DNA of 32,000 bases from Halostella pelagica (GTDB lineage Archaea > Halobacteriota > Halobacteria > Halobacteriales > Natronoarchaeaceae). The stretch spans positions 1 through 32,000 of the forward strand of contig CP040681.1 of assembly GCA_005954745.1 (NCBI GenBank), written 5' to 3'. The notes beneath the pieces were generated by a model, which searched no databases, was not told the DNA's origin, and saw only the letters and a list, made by a program, of their open reading frames with translations. The position numbers and the translations under genes are program-made. The first letter of the stretch is position 1. The number at the start of each line of letters is the position of its first letter. Positions 6,451 to 32,000 of the stretch are shown piece by piece.

Positions 6451-7035
6451 ATGGCAGAGCTCGTGACCGGCGACGGCACTGACGTCGACGAAGGTGCCAC
6501 AGTCGGCTACGAGTACGCCACTGACTGCGGACCGACGGTCCTGGGTGACGACTCCACAGTCCGACACGGATCGATACTGTACGGGGACGTTCGTGCGGGA
6601 GACGAGTTCGTCACGGGACACGGGGTCCTCGTCAGAGAAGAGTCGACGTTCGGCGACGACGTCGTCGTCGGGACCGACACGGTGATCGACGGTCGCGTCG
6701 ATGTCGGGTCTCACGTCAGTATTCAGACCGGCGTCTACGTCCCTCCGGAGAGCACTATCGGCGACAACGTGTTCCTCGGACCTCGGGCCGTGTTAACGAA
6801 CGACGCATACCCCGTCCGCCAGGAGGAGACACTCGACGGTCCGACTATCGAAGACGGCGTCTCCATCGGCGCGAACGCGACGATACTGCCGGGCGTCACC
6901 GTCGGCGCGGGGTCGTTTGTCGCCGCGGGTGCCGTCGTCGACCGCGACGTTCCTCCGGATACCCTGGCGATGGGCGTCCCAGCGGAGTTCGGGCCGCTAC
7001 CGGGCGTTCTCGAAGGTGGGAATCAGATAGCATGA
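6451..7035 (+). CDS. hexapeptide-repeat (left-handed beta-helix) N-acetyltransferase, WbpD-like
   Basis: Repeated [LIV]-G-x4 hexapeptides throughout (VGTDTVIDGRVDVGSHVSIQTGVYV...). ATGA overlap with the next gene. Confidence 0.85.
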   Translation: MAELVTGDGTDVDEGATVGYEYATDCGPTVLGDDSTVRHGSILYGDVRAGDEFVTGHGVLVREESTFGDDVVVGTDTVIDGRVDVGSHVSIQTGVYVPPESTIGDNVFLGPRAVLTNDAYPVRQEETLDGPTIEDGVSIGANATILPGVTVGAGSFVAAGAVVDRDVPPDTLAMGVPAEFGPLPGVLEGGNQIA

Positions 7036-8111
7036 GTGTCCCGATAGCTTCCCCGGACCTGGACGACGCGGAACGGAAACGCGTCGTCGAGGTCCTGGAG
7101 GACGGTCACCTCGCTGACGGTCCGCTCGTCCGGCAGTTCGAATCCGAGTTCGCCGAGTTCTGCGGCGCGGACCGCGGAGTCGCGACGTCGAACGGAACGA
7201 CGGCGCTACACGCCGCGTTTCGTGGGCTCGGCATCGGAGAGGGCGACCGCGTCATCACGACGCCGTTTTCGTTCGTCGCCAGCGCGAACGCGATCAGGTT
7301 CGCGGGCGCGGAACCGGTGTTCGCCGACATCGACCCGGAGACGTACAACCTCGACCCCCACGCGGTCGAAGAGATAGCAAGCGCGGGCGACGTCGACGCT
7401 ATCCTCGCCGTACATCTCTACGGCCTGCCCGCCGAGATGGACCACCTCCGAGATATCGCCGACGACCACGACCTCGCTCTGATCGAGGACGCCGCGCAGG
7501 CACACGACGGCGAGTACGACGGCGAACCGGTCGGTTCCCTCGGCGACGCCGCCTGCTTCTCGTTCTATCCGACGAAGAACATGACGACGGGCGAGGGCGG
7601 CATGATCACCACCGACCGCGATGAGGTCGCCGACCGCGCCGCGCGGTTCATCAATCACGGGCGCACGGACACGTACGAACACGCCGAGGTCGGACACAAC
7701 TTCCGGATGACGAGTATCGCGGCGGCCATCGGTCGCGCCCAACTGGAGAAACTCCCCGGCAACGTCGCGGACCGTCGCTCGAACGCGGCGCGGATCACCG
7801 AAGCAGTTCGCGATGCCCCGTCGCTGACCCCGCCGGCCGAACCGGACGGTCGGCGACACGCGTACCACCAGTACACGGTTCGATGCGAAGACCGCGAGGC
7901 GTTCCGGACACATCTAGAGAGCCGTGACGTGGCCACGAGCGTCTACTACCCTCGGCCGATTCACGACCAACCGGCGTACGCTGACGTGTCCGCCGACGCT
8001 CCGGAGGCCGAGCGAGCGAGCAATGAGGTGGTTTCGCTCCCGGTGCATCAGGGGCTCTCCCAGGACGACATCAGACAGATCACTGACTGCGTCAACACTT
8101 ATCATGACTAA
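7032..8111 (+). CDS. DegT/DnrJ/EryC1/StrS-family PLP aminotransferase, WbpE-like
   Basis: TSNGTTALH, DAAQAHD and SFYPTKNMTTGEGG (the PLP-lysine motif region), 359 aa. Confidence 0.9.
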   Translation: MSVPIASPDLDDAERKRVVEVLEDGHLADGPLVRQFESEFAEFCGADRGVATSNGTTALHAAFRGLGIGEGDRVITTPFSFVASANAIRFAGAEPVFADIDPETYNLDPHAVEEIASAGDVDAILAVHLYGLPAEMDHLRDIADDHDLALIEDAAQAHDGEYDGEPVGSLGDAACFSFYPTKNMTTGEGGMITTDRDEVADRAARFINHGRTDTYEHAEVGHNFRMTSIAAAIGRAQLEKLPGNVADRRSNAARITEAVRDAPSLTPPAEPDGRRHAYHQYTVRCEDREAFRTHLESRDVATSVYYPRPIHDQPAYADVSADAPEAERASNEVVSLPVHQGLSQDDIRQITDCVNTYHD

Positions 8112-9078
8112 GACCAGAGTTGGAGTCATCGGTGTCGGCAGTATGGGCCGACACCATGCGCGGGTGTATCGAGAGTTACCGAACGCCGAACTGTTCGCCG
8201 TCGCCGATGCTGATTCGGACCGCGCACAGGAGGTTGCCGACGATTACGACGCGCGGGTCCTCTCGACCGAGGGGCTGCTTAACGCGGTCGACGCGGTGTC
8301 GATAACGGTCCCGACGGAGTATCACTACGCGGTCGCGCGAGACGCGATAGACCACGGAACGCACGTTCTCGTCGAGAAACCGCTCGTCGACGACCCGGAT
8401 GCAGGGCGCGAACTCGTCGAGTGCGCGGACGAGGCCGGACTCACCTTGCAGGTCGGTCACATCGAGCGGTTCAACCCCGCGGTCCAGACGCTCCAGGATA
8501 TCGTCCCCGACCTGGACGTGATCGCGGTCGACGCCCGGCGACTGGGCCCCCCGGTCGACCGCGAGATCAGCGATAGCGTCGTCCTCGATCTCATGATCCA
8601 CGACATCGACATCGTGCTCTCGCTCGTCGACAACGACCTCGAAACCGTCGAATCGTTCCGAACCGGAGACGATCCGTACGTGGCGGCGTCGCTACAGTTC
8701 GAAAACGACACCGTCGGGACGCTGACGGCGAGCCGCGTCACTCAGGAGCGAGTGCGTCAGCTGTCTATCACGGCCCGCGAGTGCCAGGTCAACGTCGACT
8801 ACATGGAACAGACGGTTCAGATACACCGTCACTCCCTCCCTGAGTACGTCGAGACGAACGGCGACGTCCGCTATCGGAACGAGAACGTCATCGAGCGGCC
8901 GACCGTCGACAACGGGGAACCACTGAAGAAGGAACTCGCGTCGTTCGTCGAGGCCGCGACGACGGGCGAAGAGCCCGAGGTAACGGGGGACGACGGGATC
9001 CGTGCCCTGGAGGTCGCCAGAACTATCGACCGGACGGCGTCCGACCGAACTGTCCGGCCGAGGGAGGTGCGTCACTGA
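8104..9078 (+). CDS. Gfo/Idh/MocA-family NAD(P) oxidoreductase, WbpB-like
   Basis: Start chosen at MTKTRVGVIGVGSMGRHH (Rossmann GxGxxG) with an 8-nt overlap onto the aminotransferase. EKP motif (LVEKPL). The longer ORF from 7924 runs inside the upstream gene. Confidence 0.85.
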   Translation: MTKTRVGVIGVGSMGRHHARVYRELPNAELFAVADADSDRAQEVADDYDARVLSTEGLLNAVDAVSITVPTEYHYAVARDAIDHGTHVLVEKPLVDDPDAGRELVECADEAGLTLQVGHIERFNPAVQTLQDIVPDLDVIAVDARRLGPPVDREISDSVVLDLMIHDIDIVLSLVDNDLETVESFRTGDDPYVAASLQFENDTVGTLTASRVTQERVRQLSITARECQVNVDYMEQTVQIHRHSLPEYVETNGDVRYRNENVIERPTVDNGEPLKKELASFVEAATTGEEPEVTGDDGIRALEVARTIDRTASDRTVRPREVRH

Positions 9079-10442
9079 TGGAGCTAAGCAGGAACGAAAC
9101 AACCAAACTGTACGGGACGGAGAGCGCGATAGAGGACCGGCGCGAGGCGTTCGTCGACGGCGACGTACCGGTCGCGGTGTACGGACTGGGAAAGATGGGT
9201 CTCCCGCTCGCGGTCGTCTATGCGGGCGTCACCGGCAACGTCGTCGGGGCTGACGTCGACCGTGATGTCGTCGACAGGATCAACGACGGCGGCTGTCCCG
9301 TCGAGGGCGAACCGCGTCTCCCGGAACTCACCTCCGCCGCGGTCAACGCGGGGGCGTTCCAGGCGTCCGACGACCCCTCCGCGGTAGCGAACGACGCGAG
9401 CGTTCACGTCGTCATCGTCCCGACGACGCTCCGCGACGACTACCATCCGGACCTTTCGAACCTCCGGACGGCAGTTCGCGACATCGCATCGGGTCTCGAC
9501 CCGGGCGACATGGTCGTCGTCGAGTCGACCGTCCCGCCGCGAACCTGCGAAGACGTCATCGAGCCGGTCCTGATAGAGGAGAGCGGTCTCGCGGCCGACC
9601 AGTTCGGCCTCGCGTTCTGCCCGGAGCGAACGTCCAGCGGACGGGCGCTCAAAGACATCCGCGGAGCGTATCCCAAGATCGTCGGCGGCGTCGACGCGGA
9701 AAGCACGGTCGTCGCGGAGACTATCTACGACGAACTCACCGTCAACGACATCGTTCCGGTCAGCGACGCCACGACGGCGGAGTGCGTGAAAGTGTTCGAG
9801 GGCGTGTACCGGGACGTCAACATCGCTCTCGCGAACGAACTCGCAACGTTCACTGACGAGCTAGGCGTCGATGTCAACGAGGCTATCGAAACGGCGAACA
9901 CCCAGCCGTTCTGTGACATCCACGACCCCGGGGTCGGCGTGGGCGGCCACTGCATCCCCTACTACCCCTACTTCCTGATCAAGGAACTCGCGAGCGACGC
10001 GCCGATGCTGCGGACGGCGCGCGACGTGAACGACGAGATGCCGCTTTTCGCGGTCAGAAAACTCGTCGAAGGGTTACAGCGCGCCGGCAAACATATCGAG
10101 GACTCGGCGATACTCGTCCTCGGCGTGACGTACCGGGCGGGCGTCGCCGAGACCCGCAAGACGCCGGCACGGCCGATAGCCGAGAAGCTGAACCAGTTCG
10201 GCGCGACTGTCGTCGCGGCCGACCCGATGATCGACGACTTCTCCGAGTTCGACGTGTACGGTGCGGCGACCGACTCCGTCACCGACCTGGACATCGACGG
10301 GGCGATACTGGTGACGGACCACGAGGAGTTCGAGACGCTCGACTGGAACGCCTTCGACGAGAACATGGTCGTCGTAGACGGCCGTGACGCGCTCGAACTC
10401 GGTGACACCGACCACCACGTCTACACGATCGGGAGCGGGTAA
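9078..10442 (+). CDS. UDP-N-acetyl-hexosamine 6-dehydrogenase (nucleotide-sugar dehydrogenase, WbpA/WecC-like)
   Basis: VAVYGLGKMGLPLA Rossmann motif, catalytic-Cys region GVGGHCIPYYP, 454 aa. TGATG overlap with the upstream gene. Confidence 0.9.
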   Translation: MELSRNETTKLYGTESAIEDRREAFVDGDVPVAVYGLGKMGLPLAVVYAGVTGNVVGADVDRDVVDRINDGGCPVEGEPRLPELTSAAVNAGAFQASDDPSAVANDASVHVVIVPTTLRDDYHPDLSNLRTAVRDIASGLDPGDMVVVESTVPPRTCEDVIEPVLIEESGLAADQFGLAFCPERTSSGRALKDIRGAYPKIVGGVDAESTVVAETIYDELTVNDIVPVSDATTAECVKVFEGVYRDVNIALANELATFTDELGVDVNEAIETANTQPFCDIHDPGVGVGGHCIPYYPYFLIKELASDAPMLRTARDVNDEMPLFAVRKLVEGLQRAGKHIEDSAILVLGVTYRAGVAETRKTPARPIAEKLNQFGATVVAADPMIDDFSEFDVYGAATDSVTDLDIDGAILVTDHEEFETLDWNAFDENMVVVDGRDALELGDTDHHVYTIGSG

Positions 10443-10444
10443 CA

Positions 10445-11476
10445 ATGTACCGGGGCAAGACAGTCGGCGTTGTCGTGCCGGCCTACAACGAGGAGGGGTT
10501 CGTGGGTGACGTGATAGACTCCTTGCCGGAGTTCGTCGACAAGGTGTACGTCGTCGACGACTGCTCGACTGACGGGACCTGGAAGGAGGTCCAGCGACAC
10601 GCAGCGAAGGCGAACGCGCGGCGAAGCGACCCGCCGATCCCCGACGGCGGCGTCGGGTCAAACGACGATGTCGAAGCGGACGGCGGCGTCTCTCTCGACT
10701 CCCGCGTCACGACGATCCGCCACGACGAAAACAGCGGCGTCGGTGCTGCGATCAAGACCGGGTACGCCCGCGCCCGGGAGGCCGGCCTGGACGTAACCGC
10801 GGTGATAAACGGGGACGGGCAGATGGACCCGGATATTCTGGACCGGATCATCGACCCCGTCGTCAACGGAGAGGCCGACTACTCGAAAGGGAACCGTCTG
10901 CTCTCCGCTTCCCACCGCGATGGGATGTCCAGTTGGCGGCTGTTCGGCAACTCGATACTGACTTTCCTCACGAAGATAGCGAGCGGGTACTGGCGGATGG
11001 TCGACCCCCAGAACGGCTACACGGCCATCTCCCTTCGGGCGCTCGAACGGTTAGACGTCGATAATCTGTACGACGAGTACGGGTTCCTGAACGACGTTCT
11101 GGTCAAACTGAACACCCACGGGTTCCGGGTCGCCGACGTTCCGATGGAGGCACACTACGGGAACGAACAGAGCAACATCAAATACGCCGACTTCATTCCG
11201 CGGCTGTCTCTGTTGCTCTTCCGGAACTTCCTGTGGCGTCTCAAGATGAAATATCTCGTGTACGACTTCCATCCCCTCGTTCTCCTGTACACGTTCGGAG
11301 CGCTGAGTTCGCTCTCCGGCGTGGCCCTCGCAGGGGTCACGTTAACGGGGATGGACTCCGTAGTCACGGGCAGTGCGCTGTCGATACTGCTCGTCCTGTT
11401 CGGGGGGACACTATGTACGCTGGCAATGATATTCGATAAGCAGCACAACGAAAATCTGGAACGAAGAACCTGGTGA
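10445..11476 (+). CDS. family 2 glycosyltransferase with two C-terminal TM helices
   Basis: VVVPAYNEEGFV ... VVDDCSTDGT ... NGDGQMDP (DxD-type), and C-terminal hydrophobic segments as in dolichyl-phosphate sugar synthases. Confidence 0.85.
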   Translation: MYRGKTVGVVVPAYNEEGFVGDVIDSLPEFVDKVYVVDDCSTDGTWKEVQRHAAKANARRSDPPIPDGGVGSNDDVEADGGVSLDSRVTTIRHDENSGVGAAIKTGYARAREAGLDVTAVINGDGQMDPDILDRIIDPVVNGEADYSKGNRLLSASHRDGMSSWRLFGNSILTFLTKIASGYWRMVDPQNGYTAISLRALERLDVDNLYDEYGFLNDVLVKLNTHGFRVADVPMEAHYGNEQSNIKYADFIPRLSLLLFRNFLWRLKMKYLVYDFHPLVLLYTFGALSSLSGVALAGVTLTGMDSVVTGSALSILLVLFGGTLCTLAMIFDKQHNENLERRTW

Positions 11477-11484
11477 GAGCATCA

Positions 11485-12546
11485 ATGAAAGTACTGACCG
11501 TCGTCGGTGCACGACCGCAGTTCATCAAGGCGTTTCCGGTTTCGCAGGCGCTTCGAGAGTCACACGAAGAGGTGTTCGTCCACACCGGACAGCACTACGA
11601 CGAAGGCCTCTCGGACATCTTCTTCGAGGAACTTGCGATCCCCGAACCGGACTACCATCTCGGTGTCGGGTCGGCGTCGCACGCGACCCAGACCGCCGAG
11701 ATGATGACTGGAATCGAATCGCTGATCGACGAGGAGTCCCCGGATGTCGTCCTCGTTTACGGGGACACGAACTCGACACTGGCCGCGGCGATCGTCGCTG
11801 CCAAGGAGGATGTCGCGATAGCGCACGTCGAGGCCGGCCTCCGGAGCGAGAACTGGTCGATGCCGGAGGAGGTAAACCGCGTTCTCACCGACCACGCGTC
11901 GGACCTCCTGTTCGCCCCCAGCGAAAGCGCCGCGGAGAACCTCCGTGAAGAGGGTCTCACTGCCGGAGTGCACGTGACCGGCGACGTGATGCACGACGCG
12001 GTTCTCCACGCTCGAACGCGGGCGCAAGACTACTCGTCTATTACCGACGACCTCGGCGTCGACGACGGCGAATACGTCCTCGCCACGGTCCACCGCGCCG
12101 GCAACACTGACGACCCGGAGCGCCTCGAAGCTATCATGTCGGGTCTGTCGGCGTCACCGGCCCCCGTCGTCTTTCCGGCGCACCCGCGGACCGTCGGCGC
12201 ACTCGAGCAGCACGGACTCTGGGAAACGTACGCCGACGAGATGCGACTGATCGAACCGGTCGGATATCTCGATTTCGTTCGACTGCTCGACGGGGCCGAA
12301 CGCGTCGCCACGGACTCCGGTGGCGTTCAGAAGGAGGCGTTCTATCTGGACACCCCCTGCGTGACGCTTCGTAACGAGACGGAGTGGACCGAAACCGTCG
12401 AGTGCGGATGGAACGTTCTCGTCGGCGCGCGGGAGTCGGATATCCGCACAGCGTTGACCCAGCAGTTCGCCCCGGAAGAGAATCCTCCCCTGTACGGGGA
12501 CGGTACTGCCGCCACGAGAATACTGGATGCCCTCAACTATGCGTGA
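11485..12546 (+). CDS. wecB: UDP-N-acetylglucosamine 2-epimerase (non-hydrolysing), WecB/WbpI-like
   Basis: MKVLTVVGARPQFIK ... VHTGQHYD ... VYGDTNSTLA ... TDSGGVQKEA. An alternative GTG start at 11473 would give a GTGA overlap. Confidence 0.9.
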   Translation: MKVLTVVGARPQFIKAFPVSQALRESHEEVFVHTGQHYDEGLSDIFFEELAIPEPDYHLGVGSASHATQTAEMMTGIESLIDEESPDVVLVYGDTNSTLAAAIVAAKEDVAIAHVEAGLRSENWSMPEEVNRVLTDHASDLLFAPSESAAENLREEGLTAGVHVTGDVMHDAVLHARTRAQDYSSITDDLGVDDGEYVLATVHRAGNTDDPERLEAIMSGLSASPAPVVFPAHPRTVGALEQHGLWETYADEMRLIEPVGYLDFVRLLDGAERVATDSGGVQKEAFYLDTPCVTLRNETEWTETVECGWNVLVGARESDIRTALTQQFAPEENPPLYGDGTAATRILDALNYA

Positions 12547-14679: not shown

Positions 14680-17163
14680 TCAGGTGAGCCGGCGGACTGC
14701 GACGAATCCCGAGAGACAGACCGCAATCAACGCGACGCCGACACCGAACCCGGACATTCCGTTGCTCTCGCTCGTCCCGTTCGTCGGTTCCTCCCCGCTC
14801 TCGGCTTCCTCGACCCGGACCGTTGCTGTCGCCGCTCTCTCCGCAGTTTCTCCAGCAGTGATCTCGTAGGTCCCCGTCCGGTTAAATCGGACTGTGGCGG
14901 TCACGTCGGCCGATCCGTTAGCCGGGACCGTGACAGACTCAGTGGCGACGGGACCGTCGTCGGTGCGGAACGTAACCGTCCGCGTCAGCGCCGAGTCCCG
15001 GTCGTTACTCACCGTCGCCGTCACTTCGACGGGCGTTCCCGCGGTTACCTTCTGGTCGGTCACCGTGGTCTCTCGGACGACGCCTCCCGTTTCGGCGGGG
15101 ACGACCGCTACCGGCGACGATTCGTCGTTCACGGAGAGAGTCGCCTCCCCGGTTTCGTCGGGGCTGACCGGCACGGTCACGGTTTCCGTTCCGTTCGCGG
15201 GCACTGACACCGTCCGCGACGTGACGTTCTCGCCGTCGAGGGCGACTGAGACGGTTTCCGTCGCGTCGGCGGTGCCCTCGTTCCGCAGCGTTGCGGTCAC
15301 GTTGTTCGTCTCGTCGGCGCGGAGTTCGCCGCCGGTTTCGATGGCCGTTACGCTGACGTTCGGCCGCCGCACCGCGAGTGCGACCGACGAGAACTCGCCT
15401 GTAGTCGCTTCGAACCGGTACGGCTCCGCCGGTTCATCGGCCGCCGTCCCGTTCAGCCGGTGCCACTCGTTGCCCGTCCGCTGGTACAGCGCGGCGTCGG
15501 CGGGACGCTCCAGCGATTCCCCGTCCACTTGAACGGAGTACGTAACCGATTCCATCTCGACCGCCGGCCCGTCACTGACCGAGACCGTTACGGGCACGGA
15601 ATCGGCTCGTAAACCGTCGGCCGCTTCGGTAGTCACGCTCGCGTTGAGGCTCTCGGCGCTCTCGGCGGGGACGAACTCGACGCTAACCGACCTGTTTTCC
15701 CTCCTCTCCCCTACCGGTTCGAACTGGACCGCCTCTCCCGCGCGAACGTTCTGGGCGGTCACCCGTGTGCTGTCTCCATCTCTGACCGTCTCTACGGTGG
15801 TCTCCGGCGGACCGGAGGTATCAGATACCGGGGCACTGCCGGCGGCTCCGCCGCCGCTCGGACTCTCGCCGTCATCGTCCTGATTCCCGTTACCGGCATC
15901 GCCGTTTCCGCCGTCCGGTCCCGATCCGTCGCTGTCATCGTCGCTACCGCTCTCGCCACCGCCATTGTTCCCGTCCCCGCCGTCATCGTCCGCTTCGATC
16001 GAAATCTCGAACGATTCCTCTGCGGTGTTCCCGCTCGGGTCGCTAACGGTGACCGTGACGCTGTAACTACCCGCCTCGTCGAACGTGCGGGTGATCTCCT
16101 CGCCGGTCACCGACTCGGTGCCGTCGAAGGTCCACCCGACCGAGGCGACCCGGTGATCGTCGCTCGACTCGCTCGCACTCAGCGTCAGCGTCTCGCCGGC
16201 AGTCCCGCTATCCGGAACGTCAGCCGCGACGGTCGGCGCTGTCTCGTCGGTCACGTCGACCGCGGTCTCGGCGGTATCCCGGTTGCCGTTCCCGTCGACG
16301 ACGGTGACCGTTACGGTCCGTTCACCCGGTGTGTCGTACCCGTATCCGGTCGACGGTTCCGCAGTGGTCCGATCAACCGCTCCGTCGCCGGTCAGATCCC
16401 ATCGGTACTCCGCGATGTTCTCACCCGCCGAACCGCTGGCGTCGAACGTGGCTTCGTCTCCTAGCTCCACGGAACCGGGAGATGCCGCGAGCGAGGCCGA
16501 GGGCGACGCACGGTCGCATCCGCCCGTTCGAACCGTCGCCGAACTGTCCATCGAGAGGTCGACGTGGTCACCGTCGGCGTCGCGGGCCGTCCAGCCTCGG
16601 ACTCCGTCGCTGAACTCCGCTTCGACGGTGATACCGTCCGGTCCAACCCCGCGGAACGCGCCACCGTCCGTGCGGTTTTCCTTCCAGTACCACTCTACGG
16701 TGCTTGCGTCGCCGTCGCGAACGAAACTATCGTTCCGTCTGGGGTAGTCGTCGTCCTCGACGGCCCACTCGCCGTTCTCGGGGAGGTCGGTCAGGGTCGC
16801 GTTTATCTGTCCGCCGCCCTCTCCGTCTCCGAGCCTGCCGTGGATGAAGACGAGGCTCGCTCTCTCGCTCCCGTTGTAGACGAAGAGCTGACTTTCGCCC
16901 GTCCGCTGTAGCTCTCTCGTTCCATAGGAACTGTACACGCCGACGTCGTCCGTTTCGTGCGACCGGTAATCGTAGTAGGAACTGACCGATTCGGTGGCGT
17001 CTCCGTACATGGTTAGTTCCCGGCAGTCCCCGTCCTGTACGACGGACGCGGTTCCCTCGTTCGCCGCAGCGACGGGAACGCCGGATATCAGTGCCACGAA
17101 GCTCGCTGTCGTGAGAACCATCGCGAGCGAGATACTCGCGAAACGCGTTGTTTGAGAATGCAT
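14680..17163 (-). CDS. secreted surface protein: signal peptide, 2 PKD domains, D/G/N-rich linker, PGF-pre-PGF-like region, 2 CARDB-like domains, PGF-CTERM-like anchor
   Basis: Start chosen at MHSQTTRFASISLAMVLTTASFVALISGVPVAAA (signal peptide). PKD signatures are FDASGS...YRWDLTGDG and WTFDG. The C-terminus is SGFGVGVALIAVCLSGFVAVRR. Many N-x-S/T sequons. The 72-codon extension to 17379 overlaps the upstream gene. Confidence 0.85.
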   Translation of the reverse strand: MHSQTTRFASISLAMVLTTASFVALISGVPVAAANEGTASVVQDGDCRELTMYGDATESVSSYYDYRSHETDDVGVYSSYGTRELQRTGESQLFVYNGSERASLVFIHGRLGDGEGGGQINATLTDLPENGEWAVEDDDYPRRNDSFVRDGDASTVEWYWKENRTDGGAFRGVGPDGITVEAEFSDGVRGWTARDADGDHVDLSMDSSATVRTGGCDRASPSASLAASPGSVELGDEATFDASGSAGENIAEYRWDLTGDGAVDRTTAEPSTGYGYDTPGERTVTVTVVDGNGNRDTAETAVDVTDETAPTVAADVPDSGTAGETLTLSASESSDDHRVASVGWTFDGTESVTGEEITRTFDEAGSYSVTVTVSDPSGNTAEESFEISIEADDDGGDGNNGGGESGSDDDSDGSGPDGGNGDAGNGNQDDDGESPSGGGAAGSAPVSDTSGPPETTVETVRDGDSTRVTAQNVRAGEAVQFEPVGERRENRSVSVEFVPAESAESLNASVTTEAADGLRADSVPVTVSVSDGPAVEMESVTYSVQVDGESLERPADAALYQRTGNEWHRLNGTAADEPAEPYRFEATTGEFSSVALAVRRPNVSVTAIETGGELRADETNNVTATLRNEGTADATETVSVALDGENVTSRTVSVPANGTETVTVPVSPDETGEATLSVNDESSPVAVVPAETGGVVRETTVTDQKVTAGTPVEVTATVSNDRDSALTRTVTFRTDDGPVATESVTVPANGSADVTATVRFNRTGTYEITAGETAERAATATVRVEEAESGEEPTNGTSESNGMSGFGVGVALIAVCLSGFVAVRRLT

Positions 17164-17207
17164 CTTGACGAAACCTACTGGAGGCGGTGTTCTTTCAGAA
17201 TGCTGTC

Positions 17208-18329
17208 CTACGGTTTCGTTATATCGGCGCTCGGCTCCGTGAGCCGTCCCCTCTCGGTTTCGTGCCGATGGGCCATCTCGGTCCTGGACTCTATTGAGTC
17301 GGGGTCGGTCGCGATGTCTACGATAACGTCGGTGAGGTTCACCGTCTCGCTCATCAACGTCTCGCGCCGACGCTCCCACCGTTCCGTCGCCGTCTCGTCG
17401 GCGAGTAACTCCGTCGCCGTCTCGGACACCTGGTCGAACGCCCGGAGGTTCCGAACCAGGCCGCGGTTTTCGAGTTCGATGAAGTTACCCATGTCGTCCT
17501 CGCCGACGAAGGAGTTCGACCTGATAGCGGGCGTTCCGAGCAGCGCCGCCTCCGTTACCATCGTCTGCGTGTCCGCGACGAGCAAGTCCGCCTCGGCCAG
17601 TGCGTCGTGGAGCAGCGCCGGGTGGACGTCGAACTCCCGGGCCGGCAGCGAGTCCGTGTCCATCTCCTCCCCTTCGTCGGAGAGCAACACCGTCGCCTCG
17701 TCGGCCAGATCCTCCACCAGTTGTCGCCGTTGCCCGGGGGTAAACCCGCCCTCTCCGACGTCGTGGTGAGAGCCGAAGGCGTTGAACCGCACCAGTACGA
17801 AGCGCTCGTCGGGGTCGAGACCGAGACGGTCGCGGACGTCCCCGGCGGGTTCGTACACGTCCGGGTGGAGATACGCACATTCCTTGAACCCGGGGAACTC
17901 GTAGTGGTCTTCGCCGAGATCCTTCTGGAAGGCGGCGGGGGTCAACATCGCGTCCGCGAACGGCTTCGATATCTTGTGGTCGAGCGACGTGGGTTCCGAG
18001 TCGAGGATGAGTACGACCGGCGAACGCGTTACCGCTCCGGCGTGAGCGGAGTACGCGCCCATTCCGAACACGAGATCAGGGTCGAACCGGACGCCGTAAC
18101 TGAATATGTTCCGGTAGTGGTTCGGCAGGTTACGCAGTAACGAGTATTTGCTCGTATCACACTGACCGTACGTCGTGTACGGCAGGTCGTACCAGTCGAG
18201 CAGTTCCGTCGTACAGCCGTAGTCCCGGGCGAGGATCCGGGCGTCGTGACCGCGGTTCCGTAGCTCTCTCACCGCGTGCTTGTAGAGGTGCACGTGGGCG
18301 GGCGTATTGGTAAAAAACAACTGTCTCAT
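17208..18329 (-). CDS. DUF354-type protein (GT-B / 2-epimerase-like fold, predicted)
   Basis: 373 aa. N-terminal MRQLFFTNTPAHVHLYKHAVREL and C-terminal ADLLVADTQTMVTEAALLGTPAIR are typical of archaeal DUF354. Confidence 0.75.
   Translation of the reverse strand: MRQLFFTNTPAHVHLYKHAVRELRNRGHDARILARDYGCTTELLDWYDLPYTTYGQCDTSKYSLLRNLPNHYRNIFSYGVRFDPDLVFGMGAYSAHAGAVTRSPVVLILDSEPTSLDHKISKPFADAMLTPAAFQKDLGEDHYEFPGFKECAYLHPDVYEPAGDVRDRLGLDPDERFVLVRFNAFGSHHDVGEGGFTPGQRRQLVEDLADEATVLLSDEGEEMDTDSLPAREFDVHPALLHDALAEADLLVADTQTMVTEAALLGTPAIRSNSFVGEDDMGNFIELENRGLVRNLRAFDQVSETATELLADETATERWERRRETLMSETVNLTDVIVDIATDPDSIESRTEMAHRHETERGRLTEPSADITKP
17214..17222 (-). promoter_or_regulatory. ATAACGAAA box
   Basis: Lies inside the last codons of the DUF354 gene, 59 nt upstream of ATG 17163. 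Its spacing is longer than the others. Confidence 0.2.
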
Positions 18330-22122: not shown

Positions 22123-23979
22123 ATGCCGAACGGCTCTCGGAGTCATCTGTATCGTACTATGGACAGCGGACTGCTCGCTCTCGGGTTCCTCTCTCTCGCA
22201 GCGGGGATCTTCTTCGCGGCGAACGACCCGCCGAACGGCTACGAACTCTCCGTTTACACCGAAACGTCGATCCGCTTCTGGGTCGGCGTCAGCGTCGCTT
22301 TCATGGTCGCGCTCTTCGTCACGTTTACCGCCGGTCAGCTATGGCAGCGGTCGACCGCCCTGTTGCTCGCGGGGGCGTCGACGGTCGCTATCGCCGGCCT
22401 CCCGCTCGTCCGGGGGTACCGTTTCTACGGCTCGAACGACTCGCTGACGCATCTGGGGTGGGCCCGGGACGTTCTCTCCGGAACGACGGAGCCGGAAACG
22501 CTGTTTTATCCGGCGCTTCACCTGCTGACAATCGTCTCCCACCGACTTACCGGGCTCTCCCCGGAGCGGTCGATGATGCTCGCGGTCCTCCTGCTTACCA
22601 CTATCTTTCTCGTCTTCGTCCCGCTATCGGTCCGTGCGCTCACCGACAGTTACGACGCCGTCGCGATCGCAGTCTTTTCTGCCGCGTTCATGTTGCCGAT
22701 CACTAACCTCAGCACCCACATCCACGCGCATTCGTTCACGCAGGCGACGATGTTTACCGGTTTGCTGCTGTTCGTCTTTTTCGTCTACGTGGCTCGTTCG
22801 CCGTCCTCCGCCCTGTCGATCACGCCGATCGACCTCCTGCTGGCGGTGGTCTCGTTCGCCCTCGTCATGTATCACCCGCAGCAAGCCGCGAACGTCCTTT
22901 TGCTGTTTCTCACTGTCTCGGTCGTGCAGTTCGTCGTTTCGCGCACGCCGTTCGGGATCGCTGAACCGATCCGCTCGCAGCGACGGTTCTACGTTCCGAC
23001 GCTCGTGTTCGGGGCCATCTTCTTTCTCTGGACGTCGCGGTACGAACTGTTTTTCAGCGCCACTGAGTACGTCACTACCACCTTTCTCCAGTTCCTGCTG
23101 GGGTCGCCCGGCCCGATCGGCGAGTCCGTCCAATCACAGGGGGCCTCGCTCTCGGCGCTCGGCGCAGGGCTTCACGAGATCGTCTTCAAACTGCTGTTCC
23201 CGAGCCTCGTTCTCTCTCTCATCGCCGCCACCCTGATGCTCGCGGCGCTCACCGGTAGGCTAGACGGGCGACTCGGCAACAGGAACGCGATTGTGTTGTA
23301 CCTCACGCTCGGTTTCGTTCCTATCACCGGCATCTTCGTCGTCTACTTCGTCGGGAGCATCTCCGAGCAGTACTTCCGCCACTGGGGTTTCATGATGTTG
23401 CTCGTATCGGTTCTCGCTCCGATCGCGCTCTATCGCTTGCTCGACGGTCTCTCGGGACGGTTCTCCACGCCGACGCTCCGCGCGGCGACCGTTGGACTCC
23501 TGATCGTGTTACTACCGCTCGCTCTCCTGACGGTGTTTCCGTCCCCGTACGTCTACATGCCCAGTCAGCACGTAACTGACACGCAGATGGAAGGATACGA
23601 CACCGCGTTCACCTATCACAATCAGAGTCTGGACCTCGTCGGGGTTCGGGGGGGACCCTACCGGTACAGCGACGGTATTCAGGGCGTCGCGGCGGCCGAA
23701 GAGGAGTATCTCCGCGGCGTGACGAGCGAGAACATGAGTCGGTTGCCGGAGACGGAGGGAGCGCCCCGCTATCTCGCCTTTTCGCAGTTCGACGTCGAAC
23801 GCGAAGTGGGGGCCTATCAGGGTCTCCGGTACTCGCAGTCCGACTTCAGCGCCGTCCGGTCTCAGCCCGGCGTTCACCGGGTCAGTTCGAACGGGGACGT
23901 GGAACTGTACTACGTCTCTTCTAGCGACGCCGACAGCCAGGAGTCCGCCGACGGGGACGGCTCCGAGTCCGCCGCCTGA
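22123..23979 (+). CDS. polytopic membrane protein (~13-14 TM) with extracytoplasmic C-terminal domain and acidic tail; glycan polymerase / GT-C-like candidate
   Basis: Hydrophobic segments run through about residue 485, followed by a soluble ~130-aa domain ending SSDADSQESADGDGSESAA. No WWDYG motif, so this is not AglB. Confidence 0.75.
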   Translation: MPNGSRSHLYRTMDSGLLALGFLSLAAGIFFAANDPPNGYELSVYTETSIRFWVGVSVAFMVALFVTFTAGQLWQRSTALLLAGASTVAIAGLPLVRGYRFYGSNDSLTHLGWARDVLSGTTEPETLFYPALHLLTIVSHRLTGLSPERSMMLAVLLLTTIFLVFVPLSVRALTDSYDAVAIAVFSAAFMLPITNLSTHIHAHSFTQATMFTGLLLFVFFVYVARSPSSALSITPIDLLLAVVSFALVMYHPQQAANVLLLFLTVSVVQFVVSRTPFGIAEPIRSQRRFYVPTLVFGAIFFLWTSRYELFFSATEYVTTTFLQFLLGSPGPIGESVQSQGASLSALGAGLHEIVFKLLFPSLVLSLIAATLMLAALTGRLDGRLGNRNAIVLYLTLGFVPITGIFVVYFVGSISEQYFRHWGFMMLLVSVLAPIALYRLLDGLSGRFSTPTLRAATVGLLIVLLPLALLTVFPSPYVYMPSQHVTDTQMEGYDTAFTYHNQSLDLVGVRGGPYRYSDGIQGVAAAEEEYLRGVTSENMSRLPETEGAPRYLAFSQFDVEREVGAYQGLRYSQSDFSAVRSQPGVHRVSSNGDVELYYVSSSDADSQESADGDGSESAA

Positions 23980-27391: not shown

Positions 27392-28921
27392 TCACCGCTC
27401 GGATGGGACGAACCGCCAGATGAAAGGCAACGTGATCCCGAGCGCGTCCTCGATGAGTTCGAGCGGCAGTTTGTCCTCCGGCTGGAGACAGCCCGTGACC
27501 GAGACGAGACCGACCGAGACGATGCCGATCACGGCAGGCACCAGCGGAAGCGTGACGTACGTGAGCGAAACGACTGTCGACGCGGCTATCGCCGCGGGGA
27601 GGACGGTCAGCGGGAGGACGAGAAACGTCCGCTGGACCCACTTCGAGAACGGCGATATCCCGAACAGCCCCCGCAACACCACGTACTGAACGACGTTGAG
27701 CAGGGTGTACGACGCGGCCGAGGCGATCGCGGCACCCAGGAACCCGTACATCGGGATCAACAGGAGGTTGAGGACGATGTTGAGCGTGAACGCGAAGACG
27801 TTCGCGAGCAGGATGTAGTTCGTGTATCCGAGGGCGGAGAGCGTATCCAGACTGCGGCCGTACGCCGCCTGGACGAAAAACCCGGACGACAGGATTATAA
27901 GCGCCAGCGACGCCTGCGCGTACTCCTCGCCGAACACGAGCGTCAGCATATCGCTGGGAAACGCCACGAACGTCACGAACAGCGGAAACGTGACGATGAA
28001 TATCCACTTGGTCGTGACCTTGTAGATCTCGTTTATCTCCTGGGTCTTGTCGTCGACGTCGAGCCTGGACGCAAGCGGCAGGTAGAGGAACCCGAACGAC
28101 GCGAGGATAACCGGAAGGCCGTTCGCGAGCGGGTACGCCGCGCTGTACAGCGCCACCTGATGGGACGATCGGAAAAATCCCAGCATGACCGTGTCCGCCT
28201 TCGTCAGCAACAGCGTCAGGAGCGTAGAGAGAACCAGCGGTGCCGAGAAGGTCAGCATCTCTCGCGTGTGCGTTCTGAACGGACCGAACAGCGGGAACAG
28301 CCGGTTCAACAGGTAGTGGGCGGCGATGAGCGCGCCGATGGCCGCGGCGAGATACGCGTAGCCCGCGGCGACGATGCCGTACCCGGCGTACAGCAACCCG
28401 ACGACGAGGAGGATCCGCATGCCGCGATAGATAATATCGTACGAGTAGGTCCGATAGATCGTGTTCTCGAGTCCCCGGATCGCTCCGACCGTCACCTTCA
28501 GTCCGACGACGAACGGGATCGCGGCCACGAAGACGAGCAGGAGTCCGCGCGACCTCGCCTGGTCGAACAGGAGCTGGTGCGTCTCGTCGAGGAAGACGAC
28601 GAGCGCGGCCGTGAGCAAGAGAGCGAGCGTGATCGCGATGACGAGGCCGGTGATCCACACGCCGCGAACGTCGCGGTCGTCCTCGAAGCGGGAGACGTAT
28701 CGCGCGATCCCCTGGTCGAGTCCGACCAATCCGACCGTCACGCTGATGCTCATGACCGCGATCCCGAGGCTGACCTCGCCGTACGCGTCTGTCGTCAGCA
28801 CTCTGGCAATGAATATGCGTTCGACGAGCTTCGACACCGACCCCAGAACGCTCCCGAAAAACACCAGCGTCGCGCTCGACAACAGTGACGAAAGGTCACT
28901 CTCCTCGACGGACATCGTCAT
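27392..28921 (-). CDS. Wzx-like oligosaccharide flippase (MOP superfamily, polysaccharide biosynthesis protein)
   Basis: About 14 TM helices with the N-terminal pattern LVERIFIARVLTTDAYGEVSLG. Start chosen at ATG 28921, which is 41 nt from a TATA-like box. Alternatives are ATG 28915 and GTG 28966. Confidence 0.85.
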   Translation of the reverse strand: MTMSVEESDLSSLLSSATLVFFGSVLGSVSKLVERIFIARVLTTDAYGEVSLGIAVMSISVTVGLVGLDQGIARYVSRFEDDRDVRGVWITGLVIAITLALLLTAALVVFLDETHQLLFDQARSRGLLLVFVAAIPFVVGLKVTVGAIRGLENTIYRTYSYDIIYRGMRILLVVGLLYAGYGIVAAGYAYLAAAIGALIAAHYLLNRLFPLFGPFRTHTREMLTFSAPLVLSTLLTLLLTKADTVMLGFFRSSHQVALYSAAYPLANGLPVILASFGFLYLPLASRLDVDDKTQEINEIYKVTTKWIFIVTFPLFVTFVAFPSDMLTLVFGEEYAQASLALIILSSGFFVQAAYGRSLDTLSALGYTNYILLANVFAFTLNIVLNLLLIPMYGFLGAAIASAASYTLLNVVQYVVLRGLFGISPFSKWVQRTFLVLPLTVLPAAIAASTVVSLTYVTLPLVPAVIGIVSVGLVSVTGCLQPEDKLPLELIEDALGITLPFIWRFVPSER

Positions 28922-28953
28922 CAGTCGGTGTAGCCGAACTGTTTCCCACGACG

Positions 28954-28962
28954 AGACTATAC
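28954..28962 (-). promoter_or_regulatory. TATA-like GTATAGTCT
   Basis: Starts 41 nt upstream of ATG 28921 on the - strand. Confidence 0.3.
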
Positions 28963-29167
28963 GCACGCCCGGACGAACGACACTGACCGTCGGAGGGCTC
29001 CATTTATCGACTACAGCGCCTCGCCGGGTTTCGTTATACTGTACCTACCGCAGCCGTCGACGCGACGGGATAACGGGCACCCGACTCGGAGGCGACTGCA
29101 CCGCCAATGGACGACAGACGGCCTGCTCCGGAGCGCGTGGCGGGACGCATCAGTAGGGGGTCGAGAG

Positions 29168-29282: not shown

Positions 29283-29301
29283 GTGTAGACCGTTTCTACA
29301 C
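29283..29301 (-). terminator. 7-bp perfect hairpin GTGTAGA-CCGTT-TCTACAC across the stop codon
   Basis: Inverted repeat spanning the stop (29296-29298) of the 77-aa gene. No T-run follows, so the terminator role is uncertain. Confidence 0.3.
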
Positions 29302-29529
29302 GCTTTCGACGAGGTCGCAGACCGCATCCGGCTCCGCGACGATGAACGCTTCGTCTTTGATCATCTCCTCGTCGTTCGGGAGGAACATGAGCTGTTCCCC
29401 TTCGGCGTTCCGTGCTTCGACCATCTCCCAGTTGTCGAGTTCGTACCCGAGGTCGTCCTCGAGGTCCGGGTCTTCCGCCTTCTGTGCCCACTCCGACCGC
29501 GTGGGGTGCGTTTTTTCGGTGTAGCTCAT
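29296..29529 (-). CDS. small acidic hypothetical protein (77 aa)
   Basis: Strongly acidic haloarchaeal-type composition. The ATG lies 10 nt after the stop of the upstream beta-helix gene, so the two are likely co-transcribed. Confidence 0.6.
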   Translation of the reverse strand: MSYTEKTHPTRSEWAQKAEDPDLEDDLGYELDNWEMVEARNAEGEQLMFLPNDEEMIKDEAFIVAEPDAVCDLVESV

Positions 29530-29539
29530 TGTGGTCCCG

Positions 29540-32000
29540 TTACTGTTCCCCCTCGAAGTCGACCGAGGCGTTCCCGTCGATGTAGAAGGTCTTCACTGAC
29601 CCGTCGAAGGCGTAGCTGTCTTTCTTGCCGGGTTCAACGATACCGGACGCGGTTCCGCTCTCGACGGTGTCCCCGTCGTCGAGCGTCGCGCCGTTGGCCG
29701 TCGATTTTTCGATCGTACCGGTCATGGAGAACTGGTAGGTGGCCTCGGCGTCGCCGGCGTCGACGGTGATCGTGTTCGGGAGCGACGACCCGGTCGCTCC
29801 GAGTTCGGCGGGATCGACTTCCTCGCCGTCCACGATGACCGTCGCGTCGCTGTCGATGTCGAACGACGTGATGTCGCCCGAGAACGCGAAGCTGTCGATG
29901 CCGCCCCAGACGTACCCGCTCGCGGAGCTACCGTCGATCTGGTCGCCGCCGGAGGAGTTGATCCCCCACTGGTCGTCGGACGGTGCGAGGTCACCGCTGA
30001 CGGAGAACTCGTAGTTGGCCTTGCCGGAGTCGCCGTAGATGATGAGAGAACGCTCCGGGTTCGACGCGCCGTCGTCCGATCCGCTCGAACCGAGGTCGTC
30101 GGGGGTGACTTCCTTGCCGTCGAGGACGAGCGTCGCGTCGTTGTCGATCGTGAACGACGTGACTCCGCCTTCGAACTGGTAGCTGTCGATGCCGCCCCAG
30201 ACGTATCCGCTTGCGGTAGTGCCGTCTACCGCGTCGCTGTCGTCGATCGTCGCGTTGTTCGCCGTCGTTTGTTCGAGGTTGCTCTCGACGGAGAACTCGT
30301 AGTTAGCCTCGCCGGCGTCGCCGACGATCGTCAGCGTGTGCTGGTCGGCGTTCGTCGAGTCGCCGTCGTCAGAGGAGGAGTCGTCCTCCGTGCCGAGGCT
30401 GTCCGCGCTGACGTTCTCTCCGTTGAGCGTGATCGTCGCGTCGTTGTCGATGGTGAACGACGATACGTCGCCTTCGAACCCGTAGCTGTCCTTGCCGCCC
30501 CAGACGGACCCGCTCGCGGTGCTCCCGTCGATGAGGTCGTCATCGTCGGTCGTCGCTCCGTTCGCAGTGAGCTTCTGGAGGTCGTCGCTACTGACGGCGA
30601 ACTCGTAGTTGGCCTCGCCCGAGTCACCGTAGATCGTCAGGACGTTTCCTGGAAAGGGTTCGCTATCGTCTCCGGAGGGTGTGTCCTCGTATTCGCCGCT
30701 GGTCGTGTTCTCGATGTTCGGGGCCGGACAGGAGTCCCCGTTGGTGATGTTGCTGGTGTCGGCGCTCGAACTCTGGAGGTCGACCGCTTGACCGCTGACG
30801 TTGATGTTCGTATCGGCGATCTCGCAGTTGTCCGCGTCGAGGATCTGCACGCCAGTCCGGTTCGAACCCTTCTGCTGGATGCAGGAGTTTCGAACTTCGG
30901 ACCCGTCGCCGCCCATTAGCTGCACTGCGGCACCGCCGTTCGCGTTCCCGGTGACCTGCACGTTCTCCATCCGCGTCCAGTGCGGTTCGGGGGGCGTATC
31001 CTGGTCTTTCCGCCACGGGATGTTGCCGGGACGGTCCCGCCGGATCGCGGGGGTGCCGTCTACGTCACACCGCACGCGCGTGTTCTTGATGAGGAGGCTC
31101 CGTCCCTGCGGGCCGTGTTCGATGACGGACTGGAGGAGCGGCGACGACTTCGCCCACAAGTCGCAGTCCCGGACTTCCGCACCGGCGGGGATCCGCCAGT
31201 CGCTCGTCTGCGACATCTTTGCCTGCTCGACGATAATGCCGCGCGGGTTGAAACTGCCCGTCGAGATGGGGCGCGGGCCGGTGTAGTTGTCCACGTCGGT
31301 GACTATCTCGCAGTTCTCGACGTAGCTACCGTCGCCGCTGATCCGAACGCCGCAGACGTTGTTGTTCTCGAAGTAACTGTCCTCGACCTGGACCTTCATC
31401 TTCGTCCTGCTCGCGTAGATGCCGTTGTTACCGAACTCTCTGAAGTCGAGGTTCTGACATTTAAGTGTACCCTGACCGACAGCACCCCAGATCCCGACGC
31501 GGCCGTTGCCGCCCTTGTATTTCCCGATCCGGGAGCCCTTTTTCGCAGTGATGTTCCGAATGACTCCGACGCCGTCCGCGTTTCGGACGCCGGCGAGGAA
31601 CGCGTACGCCGTTCGAGATCCGCTGTGCATTCCGCGTCCGATTATCTCCATGTCTTCGATGTGGAACCGGTTGTCCACGACGAAGCGAATACTACACGTC
31701 GTGTTGTCCGCGCGCAGGTCGATGTCGATGCCCTCGACGAGCAGGTTGTCGCTGCTACCTCGGAGCCCGGTGTCGAGTAAGGGGTTGTTAAACCCGTTCG
31801 GCGGACGGAACTTCACGTCGCCTTCGCCGACGAAGCCGACTCGGTCCGGCATGTCGTACGAACCGCCGAACTGGTAGGTTCCCTCTGGGAAGCGAACGAG
31901 CGTTCCGGACTGGACCTTGTTTGCGAGCGTTCCCTCGACGTTCCCGTTTCCGTTGGGGTCGAGACCCAGGTCGTCGACGGCGTCGACGACGCGGTCGAAC
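29540..32000 (-). CDS. right-handed parallel beta-helix (pectate-lyase fold) protein with four C-terminal tandem modules; N-terminus lies beyond the window
   Basis: The frame stays open from 31852 to 32000 and reads ...TLVRFPEGTYQFGGSYDMPDRVGF. PbH1-like repeats are present (NNGIYASR, NNNVCGVRISGDGSYVENCEI). It ends with four repeated modules. Confidence 0.85.
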   Translation of the reverse strand, partial: FDRVVDAVDDLGLDPNGNGNVEGTLANKVQSGTLVRFPEGTYQFGGSYDMPDRVGFVGEGDVKFRPPNGFNNPLLDTGLRGSSDNLLVEGIDIDLRADNTTCSIRFVVDNRFHIEDMEIIGRGMHSGSRTAYAFLAGVRNADGVGVIRNITAKKGSRIGKYKGGNGRVGIWGAVGQGTLKCQNLDFREFGNNGIYASRTKMKVQVEDSYFENNNVCGVRISGDGSYVENCEIVTDVDNYTGPRPISTGSFNPRGIIVEQAKMSQTSDWRIPAGAEVRDCDLWAKSSPLLQSVIEHGPQGRSLLIKNTRVRCDVDGTPAIRRDRPGNIPWRKDQDTPPEPHWTRMENVQVTGNANGGAAVQLMGGDGSEVRNSCIQQKGSNRTGVQILDADNCEIADTNINVSGQAVDLQSSSADTSNITNGDSCPAPNIENTTSGEYEDTPSGDDSEPFPGNVLTIYGDSGEANYEFAVSSDDLQKLTANGATTDDDDLIDGSTASGSVWGGKDSYGFEGDVSSFTIDNDATITLNGENVSADSLGTEDDSSSDDGDSTNADQHTLTIVGDAGEANYEFSVESNLEQTTANNATIDDSDAVDGTTASGYVWGGIDSYQFEGGVTSFTIDNDATLVLDGKEVTPDDLGSSGSDDGASNPERSLIIYGDSGKANYEFSVSGDLAPSDDQWGINSSGGDQIDGSSASGYVWGGIDSFAFSGDITSFDIDSDATVIVDGEEVDPAELGATGSSLPNTITVDAGDAEATYQFSMTGTIEKSTANGATLDDGDTVESGTASGIVEPGKKDSYAFDGSVKTFYIDGNASVDFEGEQ
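29543..30640 (-). repeat. four tandem coding repeats (~78-101 aa each)
   Basis: Units at 30338-30640, 30047-30337, 29777-30046 and 29543-29776. Consensus: L-x-I-x-G-D-x-G-x-A-x-Y-x-F ... ASG-Y-VWGG-x-DS-Y-x-F-x-G ... F-x-I-D. A 24-nt identical stretch GCTGTCGATGCCGCCCCAGACGTA occurs at 29891-29914 and 30182-30205. Confidence 0.85.

Follow-up and report, generated by a model that had tools for sequence, protein, structure and literature searches.

A Tat-signal-bearing beta-helix protein with four tandem repeats in a surface-glycan island of Halostella pelagica, a candidate polymer-modifying enzyme

The first 32,000 nucleotides of contig CP040681.1 of the haloarchaeon Halostella pelagica (assembly GCA_005954745.1), here called the window, end within a minus-strand gene for a right-handed parallel beta-helix protein that carries four tandem repeats at its C-terminus. 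The best explanation for this gene is that it encodes the exported, non-lipidated member of a pair of haloarchaeal beta-helix proteins found in Wzx-type surface-glycan or exopolysaccharide (EPS) islands. We put at roughly 55% the probability that the product is an extracellular enzyme which leaves the cell by the twin-arginine translocation (Tat) pathway, acts on the anionic glycan of its own island, is tethered or spaced by an array of beta-sandwich modules and works alongside a membrane-anchored paralogue. A first-pass annotation, made from the sequence of the window alone, had described the gene as encoding a beta-helix enzyme of AlgE-like architecture next to a uronic-acid pathway, and we followed up this description by computational analysis.

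Open reading frame (ORF) calling and translation placed the stop codon at 29540-29542 and showed that the frame stays open up to the window edge, with 819 codons inside the window. Along its entire length, the window translation shares 99% identity with P0001, an 878-residue hypothetical protein of Halostella sp. PRR32 (GCA_034808085.1). By this comparison, the window carries the 3' 93% of the gene; the missing 59 codons at the 5' end, which encode the Tat signal, lie past the window edge. The protein consists of a beta-helix of about 430 to 450 residues, a disordered acidic linker and four repeats of about 85 residues each. Repeat 4 forms the C-terminus and is not followed by a membrane anchor. 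Literature searches returned no description of the beta-helix family or of the repeat. The elements of the gene, with residues numbered along the window translation, are as follows.

29540..32000, minus strand: gene for the predicted Tat-exported beta-helix and four-repeat protein, partial (819 of 878 codons; ORF, translation, 99% identity to P0001)
30710..32000, minus strand: right-handed parallel beta-helix, putative catalytic domain, residues 1 to about 430 (AlphaFold2, Foldseek, Pfam)
31241..31519, minus strand: central coils, where most polar residues kept throughout the family are found, a candidate for the substrate groove or the active site (columns conserved to at least 80% in 93 homologues)
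30650..30709, minus strand: acidic Ser/Asp/Glu/Pro linker from the beta-helix to repeat 1 (sequence; AlphaFold2 predicted local distance difference test score, pLDDT, below 50 for residues 434-449)
30392..30649, minus strand: repeat 1, residues 451-536, internal subtype (profile, DNA repeats, subtype comparison)
30089..30343, minus strand: repeat 2, residues 553-637, internal subtype, the unit that was modelled (AlphaFold2 pLDDT 97.3, seven-stranded, beta-rich)
29798..30055, minus strand: repeat 3, residues 649-734, internal subtype (profile, DNA repeats, subtype comparison)
29543..29779, minus strand: repeat 4, residues 741-819, C-terminal position (profile, subtype comparison)

Since the export signal lies outside the window, it was read from P0001, whose N-terminus (MAKDHDD...DRRSYLKLTGAAAV...) carries a twin-arginine signal. 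The first 59 codons encode MAKDHDDVREEKADVAEENDSLIDRRSYLKLTGAAAVTAGAATAAAGTGAAAETLHG, in which a twin-arginine motif is followed by a hydrophobic stretch that holds no cysteine; the motif itself, DRRSYLKL, lies in DRRSYLKLTGAAAVTAGAATAAAG. Judged by its sequence, the N-terminus is a Tat signal without a lipobox. Throughout, Tat signals were called by motif scan alone, without a dedicated predictor. The secretion proposed in the first-pass annotation, which had named a Sec or Tat signal as the point to check, is thus supported by the 99%-identical full-length protein.

The homologues of the protein form two classes, one of long, repeat-bearing proteins and one of short proteins (about 470-640 residues) that lack repeats, and several genomes have a gene of each class side by side. 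In H. pelagica the short paralogue lies directly upstream, just past the window edge (L001:7924-9540), and encodes a 538-residue beta-helix protein without repeats. Its N-terminus, VNRRRYLQALGGVGLVAAAGC, combines a Tat motif with a lipobox, and the product is a predicted Tat lipoprotein. The two classes differ in this respect. Complete N-termini were available for 52 long proteins, 50 of which carry a Tat motif and none a Tat motif plus lipobox. The corresponding figures for the short class are 49 complete N-termini, 42 with a Tat motif and 30 with both. Because lipid anchor and repeat array are mutually exclusive, we propose that the repeats govern the location of the enzyme, this being the best, though indirect, argument for such a role. 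The repeats could retain the enzyme on the envelope or on the polymer, or they could serve as an extended stalk.

The AlphaFold2 model of the beta-helix (pLDDT 92.9) consists of stacked short strands. With 25.7 bits against a cut-off of 25.9, the window domain falls just under the threshold of Pfam Beta_helix (PF13229), which the upstream paralogue passes (34.8 bits), and many homologues have precomputed PF13229 or PF12708 matches. Together with the model, these matches place the domain in the pectin-lyase-fold or Beta_helix superfamily. A Foldseek search of the PDB returned top matches that are all right-handed beta-helices and all carbohydrate-active or carbohydrate-binding. The A-modules of AlgE6 and AlgE4 ranked highest, followed by glycoside hydrolase family 28 (GH28) exopolygalacturonase, polysaccharide lyase family 6 (PL6) alginate lyases, GH87, PfbA, the RbmB lyase, phi29 gp12 and tailspikes. 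The best match was the AlgE6 A-module 5LW3 (E 3e-6; template modelling (TM) scores TMq 0.55 and TMt 0.64) and the next AlgE4 2PYH (0.54/0.63); phage tailspikes and phi29 gp12 reached similar TM scores of up to 0.53. Model and fold matches thus confirm the beta-helix seen in the first-pass annotation, from residue 1 to about 430 of the window translation.

Column conservation pointed to a candidate functional site. Thirteen polar residues (D94, Y161, R167, N192, Y195, S197, R198, N212, N213, R219, S225, D235 and R253) are conserved in 82-99% of 93 homologues, and all of them except D94 lie within residues 161-253, a stretch of some three successive coils. Between Y195 and R219 there is a distance of 24 residues, or about one coil by strand spacing, and the two may stack on each other. 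The conserved Tyr/Arg/Asp set is kept in both paralogue types and in many genera. Lys and Arg make up 10% of the beta-helix versus 2.4% of the repeats, and a conserved patch of basic and aromatic residues on a protein that is otherwise acidic would fit the binding of an anionic polymer.

The four repeats share 33-65% pairwise identity and 18 invariant columns. At the DNA level the copies are imperfect (67-79% identical to reference copies), and they are too divergent for Tandem Repeats Finder, which did not detect the array. The start-to-start spacing of 276-306 nucleotides agrees with the modules of 101, 97, 90 and 78 residues that had been delineated in the first-pass annotation. The A-x-Y-x-F, ASG and D-S-x-x-F-x-G blocks listed there are among the invariant columns, and the D/S/G-rich linkers between the modules are likewise evident in the sequence. 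The modelled unit of 85 residues (AlphaFold2 pLDDT 97.3) is all-beta with seven strands, several of them long. One or two of its conserved positions are acidic, and the remainder are Gly or hydrophobic. RTX nonapeptides are missing: P0001 contains no match to GG.G.D and none to HemolysinCabind at E <= 1. The earlier suggestion that the repeats may be glycan- or cation-binding modules found no support as regards cations, since the one or two conserved acidic positions do not indicate a dedicated cation site. Because they lack RTX nonapeptides and form a seven-stranded, beta-rich domain of about 85 residues and not a beta-roll, the repeats are not R-modules of the AlgE type.

We wondered whether the repeat belongs to a known domain family. 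The pattern of four repeats is far beyond chance, and a profile of the unit found 212 copies in 57 of the 108 homologues. The repeat profile used for wider searches was built from 79 diverse units. At E <= 0.01, Pfam gave no match for these units other than a single one to RodZ_C at chance level. The only Pfam family that touches the repeats is DUF7713 (PF24828). The whole protein scored 19.3 bits against its cut-off of 24.1, single repeats gave E values of 0.045-0.084, and none of the 79 units matched it at E <= 0.01. NCBIfam gave no match anywhere in the protein. Searching PDB sequences with the repeat profile gave no significant match either, the best being a family 40 carbohydrate-binding module (CBM40) at E 0.13. 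A Foldseek search of the PDB with the repeat fold also remained without significant result: the CBM2 domains 3NDY_E and 6QFS appeared at E 0.065-0.16 with TM scores of about 0.3, and the best TM score, 0.54, was to a DUF4425 protein. A fold search of BFVD returned no significant match. With sequence-profile and structure searches run against Pfam, NCBIfam, PDB and BFVD, the statement of the first-pass annotation that the repeat is not a recognisable named domain stands.

The domain is nevertheless abundant. It occurs in at least 1,935 representative proteins or clusters at E <= 1e-3 out of 1.84 billion, and in 1,264 at E <= 1e-10. All repeat carriers with an organism name are Halobacteria. Among the best 138 carriers, 76 are without the Halostella-type beta-helix family, as judged by a local hidden Markov model (HMM) from the first 425 columns. 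Partner domains include S8 subtilases (one together with GH26), a polysaccharide deacetylase, other beta-helices, PKD arrays, PPC and an AstE/AspA-type hydrolase, and some carriers consist of repeats alone. Because the repeat is also attached to proteases and unrelated enzymes, we regard it as a general extracellular accessory module and not as a substrate-specific partner. In this respect it is like the PKD, PPC, FN3-like and CBM2 modules, being a beta-rich repeat of about 85 residues that occurs in tandem, joined by linkers, on many different secreted enzymes. It is unlike them in that neither its sequence nor its fold matches any of these modules significantly.

Members of the beta-helix family carry 1 to 6 repeats, most often 4, and the C-terminal one forms a distinct subtype. 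Comparing units with those of other proteins, the nearest neighbour of a terminal repeat was a terminal repeat in 46 of 53 cases, and that of an internal repeat an internal one in 157 of 159. Repeat 4 of the window is an exception, its nearest neighbours being internal repeats. Within a protein, taken over the repeat units of the 57 homologues, internal units share a mean identity of 52% with one another and of 36% with the terminal unit. These values suggest that internal units are gained and lost through tandem duplication and that the terminal unit has a role of its own.

The genomic setting connects the gene to the synthesis of an acidic surface glycan. The Pfam domains of its neighbours identify an island for surface polysaccharide, as the first-pass annotation had held, with genes for a uronic-acid sugar. 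The island elements that bear most directly on the gene are the following.

6451..12546, plus strand: Wbp-like gene set, putatively for a diacetamido-uronic acid nucleotide sugar (Pfam matches)
27392..28966, minus strand: Wzx-type flippase (Polysacc_synt/MatE), next downstream, L001 13256-14785 (Pfam; 10 hydrophobic segments)
29296..29529, minus strand: acidic ORF of 77 residues directly downstream of the beta-helix gene (conserved position, no Pfam match, no signal peptide)

The segment 6451-12546 holds, contiguously, genes for a hexapeptide acetyltransferase, a DegT aminotransferase, a GFO/IDH/MocA oxidoreductase, a UDP-sugar 6-dehydrogenase, a glycosyltransferase of family 2 (GT2) and a UDP-GlcNAc 2-epimerase. 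This combination of domains resembles the WbpA/B/D/E/I route to UDP-2,3-diacetamido-2,3-dideoxy-uronic acids, and the gene set is the likely source of an acidic sugar. The uronic-acid pathway reported next to the beta-helix gene is therefore present in the same island, about 17 kb away and not immediately adjacent. Downstream of the gene follow the 77-residue ORF, the flippase, GT61, an NDP-sugar epimerase/dehydratase, a nucleotidyltransferase, a protein with 12 transmembrane segments and no Pfam match, and GT4; GlmS is also a neighbour.

A beta-helix gene among surface-glycan genes was likewise found at five further loci, in Halostella litorea and in four other genera (Halorubrum, Halomarina, Halogeometricum and Halococcus). 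Four of the five (L003, L004, L006 and L007) have a flippase close to the beta-helix gene, and none is present on the short Halomarina contig. The elements shared across these loci are the flippase, GT2 or GT4, a phosphodiesterase and DUF1616 plus YdjM. Some of the loci also encode sulfatases, a pyruvyl transferase or a PF05426 alginate lyase. In Halorubrum sp. 2020YC2 such a PF05426 gene stands separately, two genes upstream of the short/long pair (L003:4984-6234). A metagenomic homologue of 1066 residues (P0102) joins the two kinds of domain in one chain, in the order beta-helix, one repeat, complete PF05426 alginate-lyase domain (residues 654-920, E 1.6e-31) and terminal repeat.

From these data we derive the following model. 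The beta-helix protein is probably a sugar-polymer-modifying enzyme. It would be exported folded via Tat, and its beta-helix would bind the anionic polymer of the island along a groove formed by the conserved Tyr, Arg, Asp and Asn residues of three consecutive coils. The polymer would be rich in uronic acids and, in relatives, sulfated or pyruvylated. Modification would take place at the level of the polymer, most likely as cleavage by a lyase or hydrolase, which may serve chain-length control, release or turnover, and less likely as C5-epimerisation. By analogy, a lyase or hydrolase is the default expectation for a beta-helix fold in the context of a polysaccharide cluster. The four beta-sandwich modules on their flexible acidic linkers would form a stalk or retention device that holds the enzyme on the envelope or polymer and away from the membrane, and the lipoprotein paralogue would work at the membrane surface.

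Several observations weigh against this model. We identified no catalytic motif known from a characterised family of GHs, PLs or epimerases, and no His, Glu or Lys is conserved in the beta-helix across the 93 homologues. The Pfam beta-helix scores are at or slightly under threshold, and non-enzymatic beta-helix adhesins such as PfbA are among the fold matches. The predominance of Gly and hydrophobic residues at the conserved repeat positions suggests a structural role for the repeats. The polymer of the island could also be an N-glycan instead of EPS.

Some of these points would suit a non-catalytic surface protein, that is, an adhesin or a structural component of the envelope or matrix, in which the beta-helix is a rigid binding scaffold and the repeats are its stalk. 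Besides lacking a recognisable catalytic motif, the protein has PfbA among its fold matches (TMq 0.42-0.44), its repeat co-occurs with PKD arrays typical of surface proteins, and the variation of the copy number among homologues is adhesin-like. We nevertheless consider such a function unlikely. A tight set of Tyr, Arg and Asp residues is kept in the central coils of both paralogue types and many genera, the gene is consistently linked to genes for glycan synthesis, an alginate-lyase domain is fused to one of the homologues, and most proteins of this fold in polysaccharide clusters are enzymes (PMC7949094; Foldseek). An origin from a viral tailspike or depolymerase, residing on a provirus or defence island, is highly improbable. 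HK620, Sf6, CBA120 and phi29 tailspike-type proteins are indeed among the fold matches, but the protein matches no PHROG family, a tblastn search of 50,697 phage records gave no match, there are no viral genes among the neighbours, a Tat signal peptide is present and the chromosomal context is conserved across genera.

The AlgE-like combination of A- and R-modules put forward in the first-pass annotation leads to another alternative: a polymer-level uronate C5-epimerase of the AlgE/AlgG kind that converts mannuronate-type to guluronate-type residues after export, with the repeats taking the processivity or binding role of R-modules. AlgE6 and AlgE4 A-modules are the best fold matches in the PDB, and the N-terminal cap aligns with AlgE4. 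The UDP-sugar 6-dehydrogenase and 2-epimerase of the island would supply a ManNAcA-type sugar, the PF05426 gene near the Halorubrum pair and the P0102 fusion recall AlgG plus AlgL in alginate operons, and the conserved Tyr and Arg would suit carboxylate neutralisation and proton abstraction. However, the catalytic motif YG(F/I)DPH(D/E), which contributes Tyr149, Asp152 and His154 in AlgE4, has no counterpart: a scan of the 108 homologues for DPH[DE] gave no match, and no His column reaches 80% conservation. An epimerase would need a mechanism without DPH(D/E). Aligned by hhalign with the AlgE4 A-module (sequence verified against PDB 2PYG_A), the family profile gave a probability of 18% over 83 columns, confined to the N-terminal cap (residues 18-102 versus AlgE4 19-116) and not reaching the catalytic coils, and AlgE was not retrieved by a profile search of PDB sequences. 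The TM score of about 0.55 is matched by tailspikes and phi29 gp12 (0.53), the repeats are not RTX R-modules, and AlgE enzymes leave the cell by a type I route in place of Tat. We therefore rate an epimerase of this kind as unlikely. Membership in the AlgE family itself was rejected on three grounds: the missing catalytic motif, a profile alignment limited to the cap and repeats of a different nature. What remains of the AlgE comparison is a resemblance of fold and an analogy of layout; catalytic motif, detectable homology beyond the cap and RTX repeats are absent.

A more far-reaching reading would see in the repeat a new haloarchaeal family for binding to envelope or glycan, a counterpart of SLH domains and CBMs that retains otherwise unanchored secreted enzymes, and in the beta-helix pair an archaeal system for modifying uronic-acid glycans at the polymer level, possibly a C5-epimerase or lyase with a Tyr/Arg mechanism that dispenses with DPH(D/E). 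We offer it as a speculation that is unlikely to hold.

The island contains further genes of note. The 77-residue ORF, characterised by the motif DDLGYELDxWE...LPxDEExIKEEAFIV, has positional counterparts at L002:11430-11663, L003:13067-13285 (Halorubrum) and L004:12703-12975 (Halostella litorea), with 41-84% identity, and a second copy lies elsewhere in the H. litorea cluster (L004:2825-3058). It may be co-transcribed with the beta-helix gene; the association is positional only. Mid-island, the gene at 22123-23979 (plus strand) encodes a 618-residue protein with about 12 hydrophobic segments and no Pfam match, which could be a Wzy-like polymerase or a transferase of the GT-C type. L002, L004 and L006 have a comparable gene without annotation, of about 600-630 residues. 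Two paralogous proteins of 334 residues, encoded at 2445-3449 (minus strand) and 13470-14474 (plus strand), carry Acetyltransf_6 (PF13480, GNAT), a family which we take to be FemAB-like, and might add amino-acid or acyl substituents to the glycan.

At 14680-17379 (minus strand), an ORF of up to 899 residues contains two PKD domains and CARDB and has hydrophobic segments near both ends. Its listed GTG start overlaps the neighbouring gene, and the true start may be further downstream. The product is probably a surface protein encoded by the island, and a CARDB protein is also present in the Halorubrum cluster (L003:18293-20065). A DUF1616 membrane protein and a YdjM-family protein are encoded at 746-2364 (plus strand) and recur by the beta-helix genes in L004 and L005. 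A type I phosphodiesterase/nucleotide pyrophosphatase is encoded at 3603-5225 (minus strand) and recurs in L003 and L006. The recurrence of DUF1616/YdjM and of the phosphodiesterase suggests a conserved functional module.

Knowledge of how EPS and envelope glycans are made and remodelled in archaea is scant (PMC9943897), and because EPS biosynthesis in archaea is so poorly understood, the repeat family and the dichotomy between lipoprotein and repeat array merit attention. The link between the beta-helix pair and acidic-glycan clusters extends over at least five haloarchaeal genera, and the two proteins are candidates for the first archaeal enzymes of their type that modify or depolymerise glycans at the polymer level. 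The abundant repeat domain on many secreted haloarchaeal enzymes may explain how these are retained at the surface without a lipid or PGF-CTERM anchor. Salt-active glycan-modifying enzymes are also of possible practical interest.

Among known systems, AlgE4 and AlgE6 of Azotobacter vinelandii (2PYG/2PYH, 5LW3) share with the Halostella protein a right-handed beta-helix of similar size, a similar N-terminal cap motif, the succession of a catalytic-type helix and tandem acidic modules, and an extracellular location tied to a uronic-acid polymer. They differ in possessing the YG(F/I)DPH(D/E) motif with its His, in having no homology detectable outside the cap and in carrying RTX beta-rolls in place of beta-rich 85-residue domains, and the Halostella protein is Tat-exported in an archaeal host. 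PL6, GH28 exopolygalacturonase and GH87 belong to the same fold class, act on acidic polymers and gave significant Foldseek and weak HMM matches; the latter, however, reached E values of only about 1e-3 over 80-140 residues, and no catalytic signature could be mapped. WceF of Pantoea stewartii is a beta-helix glycosidase whose gene lies within the stewartan EPS cluster (PMC7949094). Like WceF and RbmB of Vibrio cholerae (9OZL/9OZD), the Halostella protein is a beta-helix protein encoded inside a cluster for surface-polysaccharide biosynthesis, with a proposed role in remodelling the matrix glycan of its own cell. RbmB, a lyase of Vibrio polysaccharide (VPS), is itself among the fold matches (E 5e-5), albeit with a low TM score of 0.27-0.33, and neither protein shows a detectable sequence relationship to that of Halostella. 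To our knowledge, neither has a lipoprotein partner or a repeat array. The theme of a secreted beta-helix carbohydrate enzyme with accessory modules, encoded beside a polysaccharide cluster, is familiar from bacteria; here it is represented by an uncharacterised haloarchaeal family together with an abundant domain for which the searched libraries gave no curated family.

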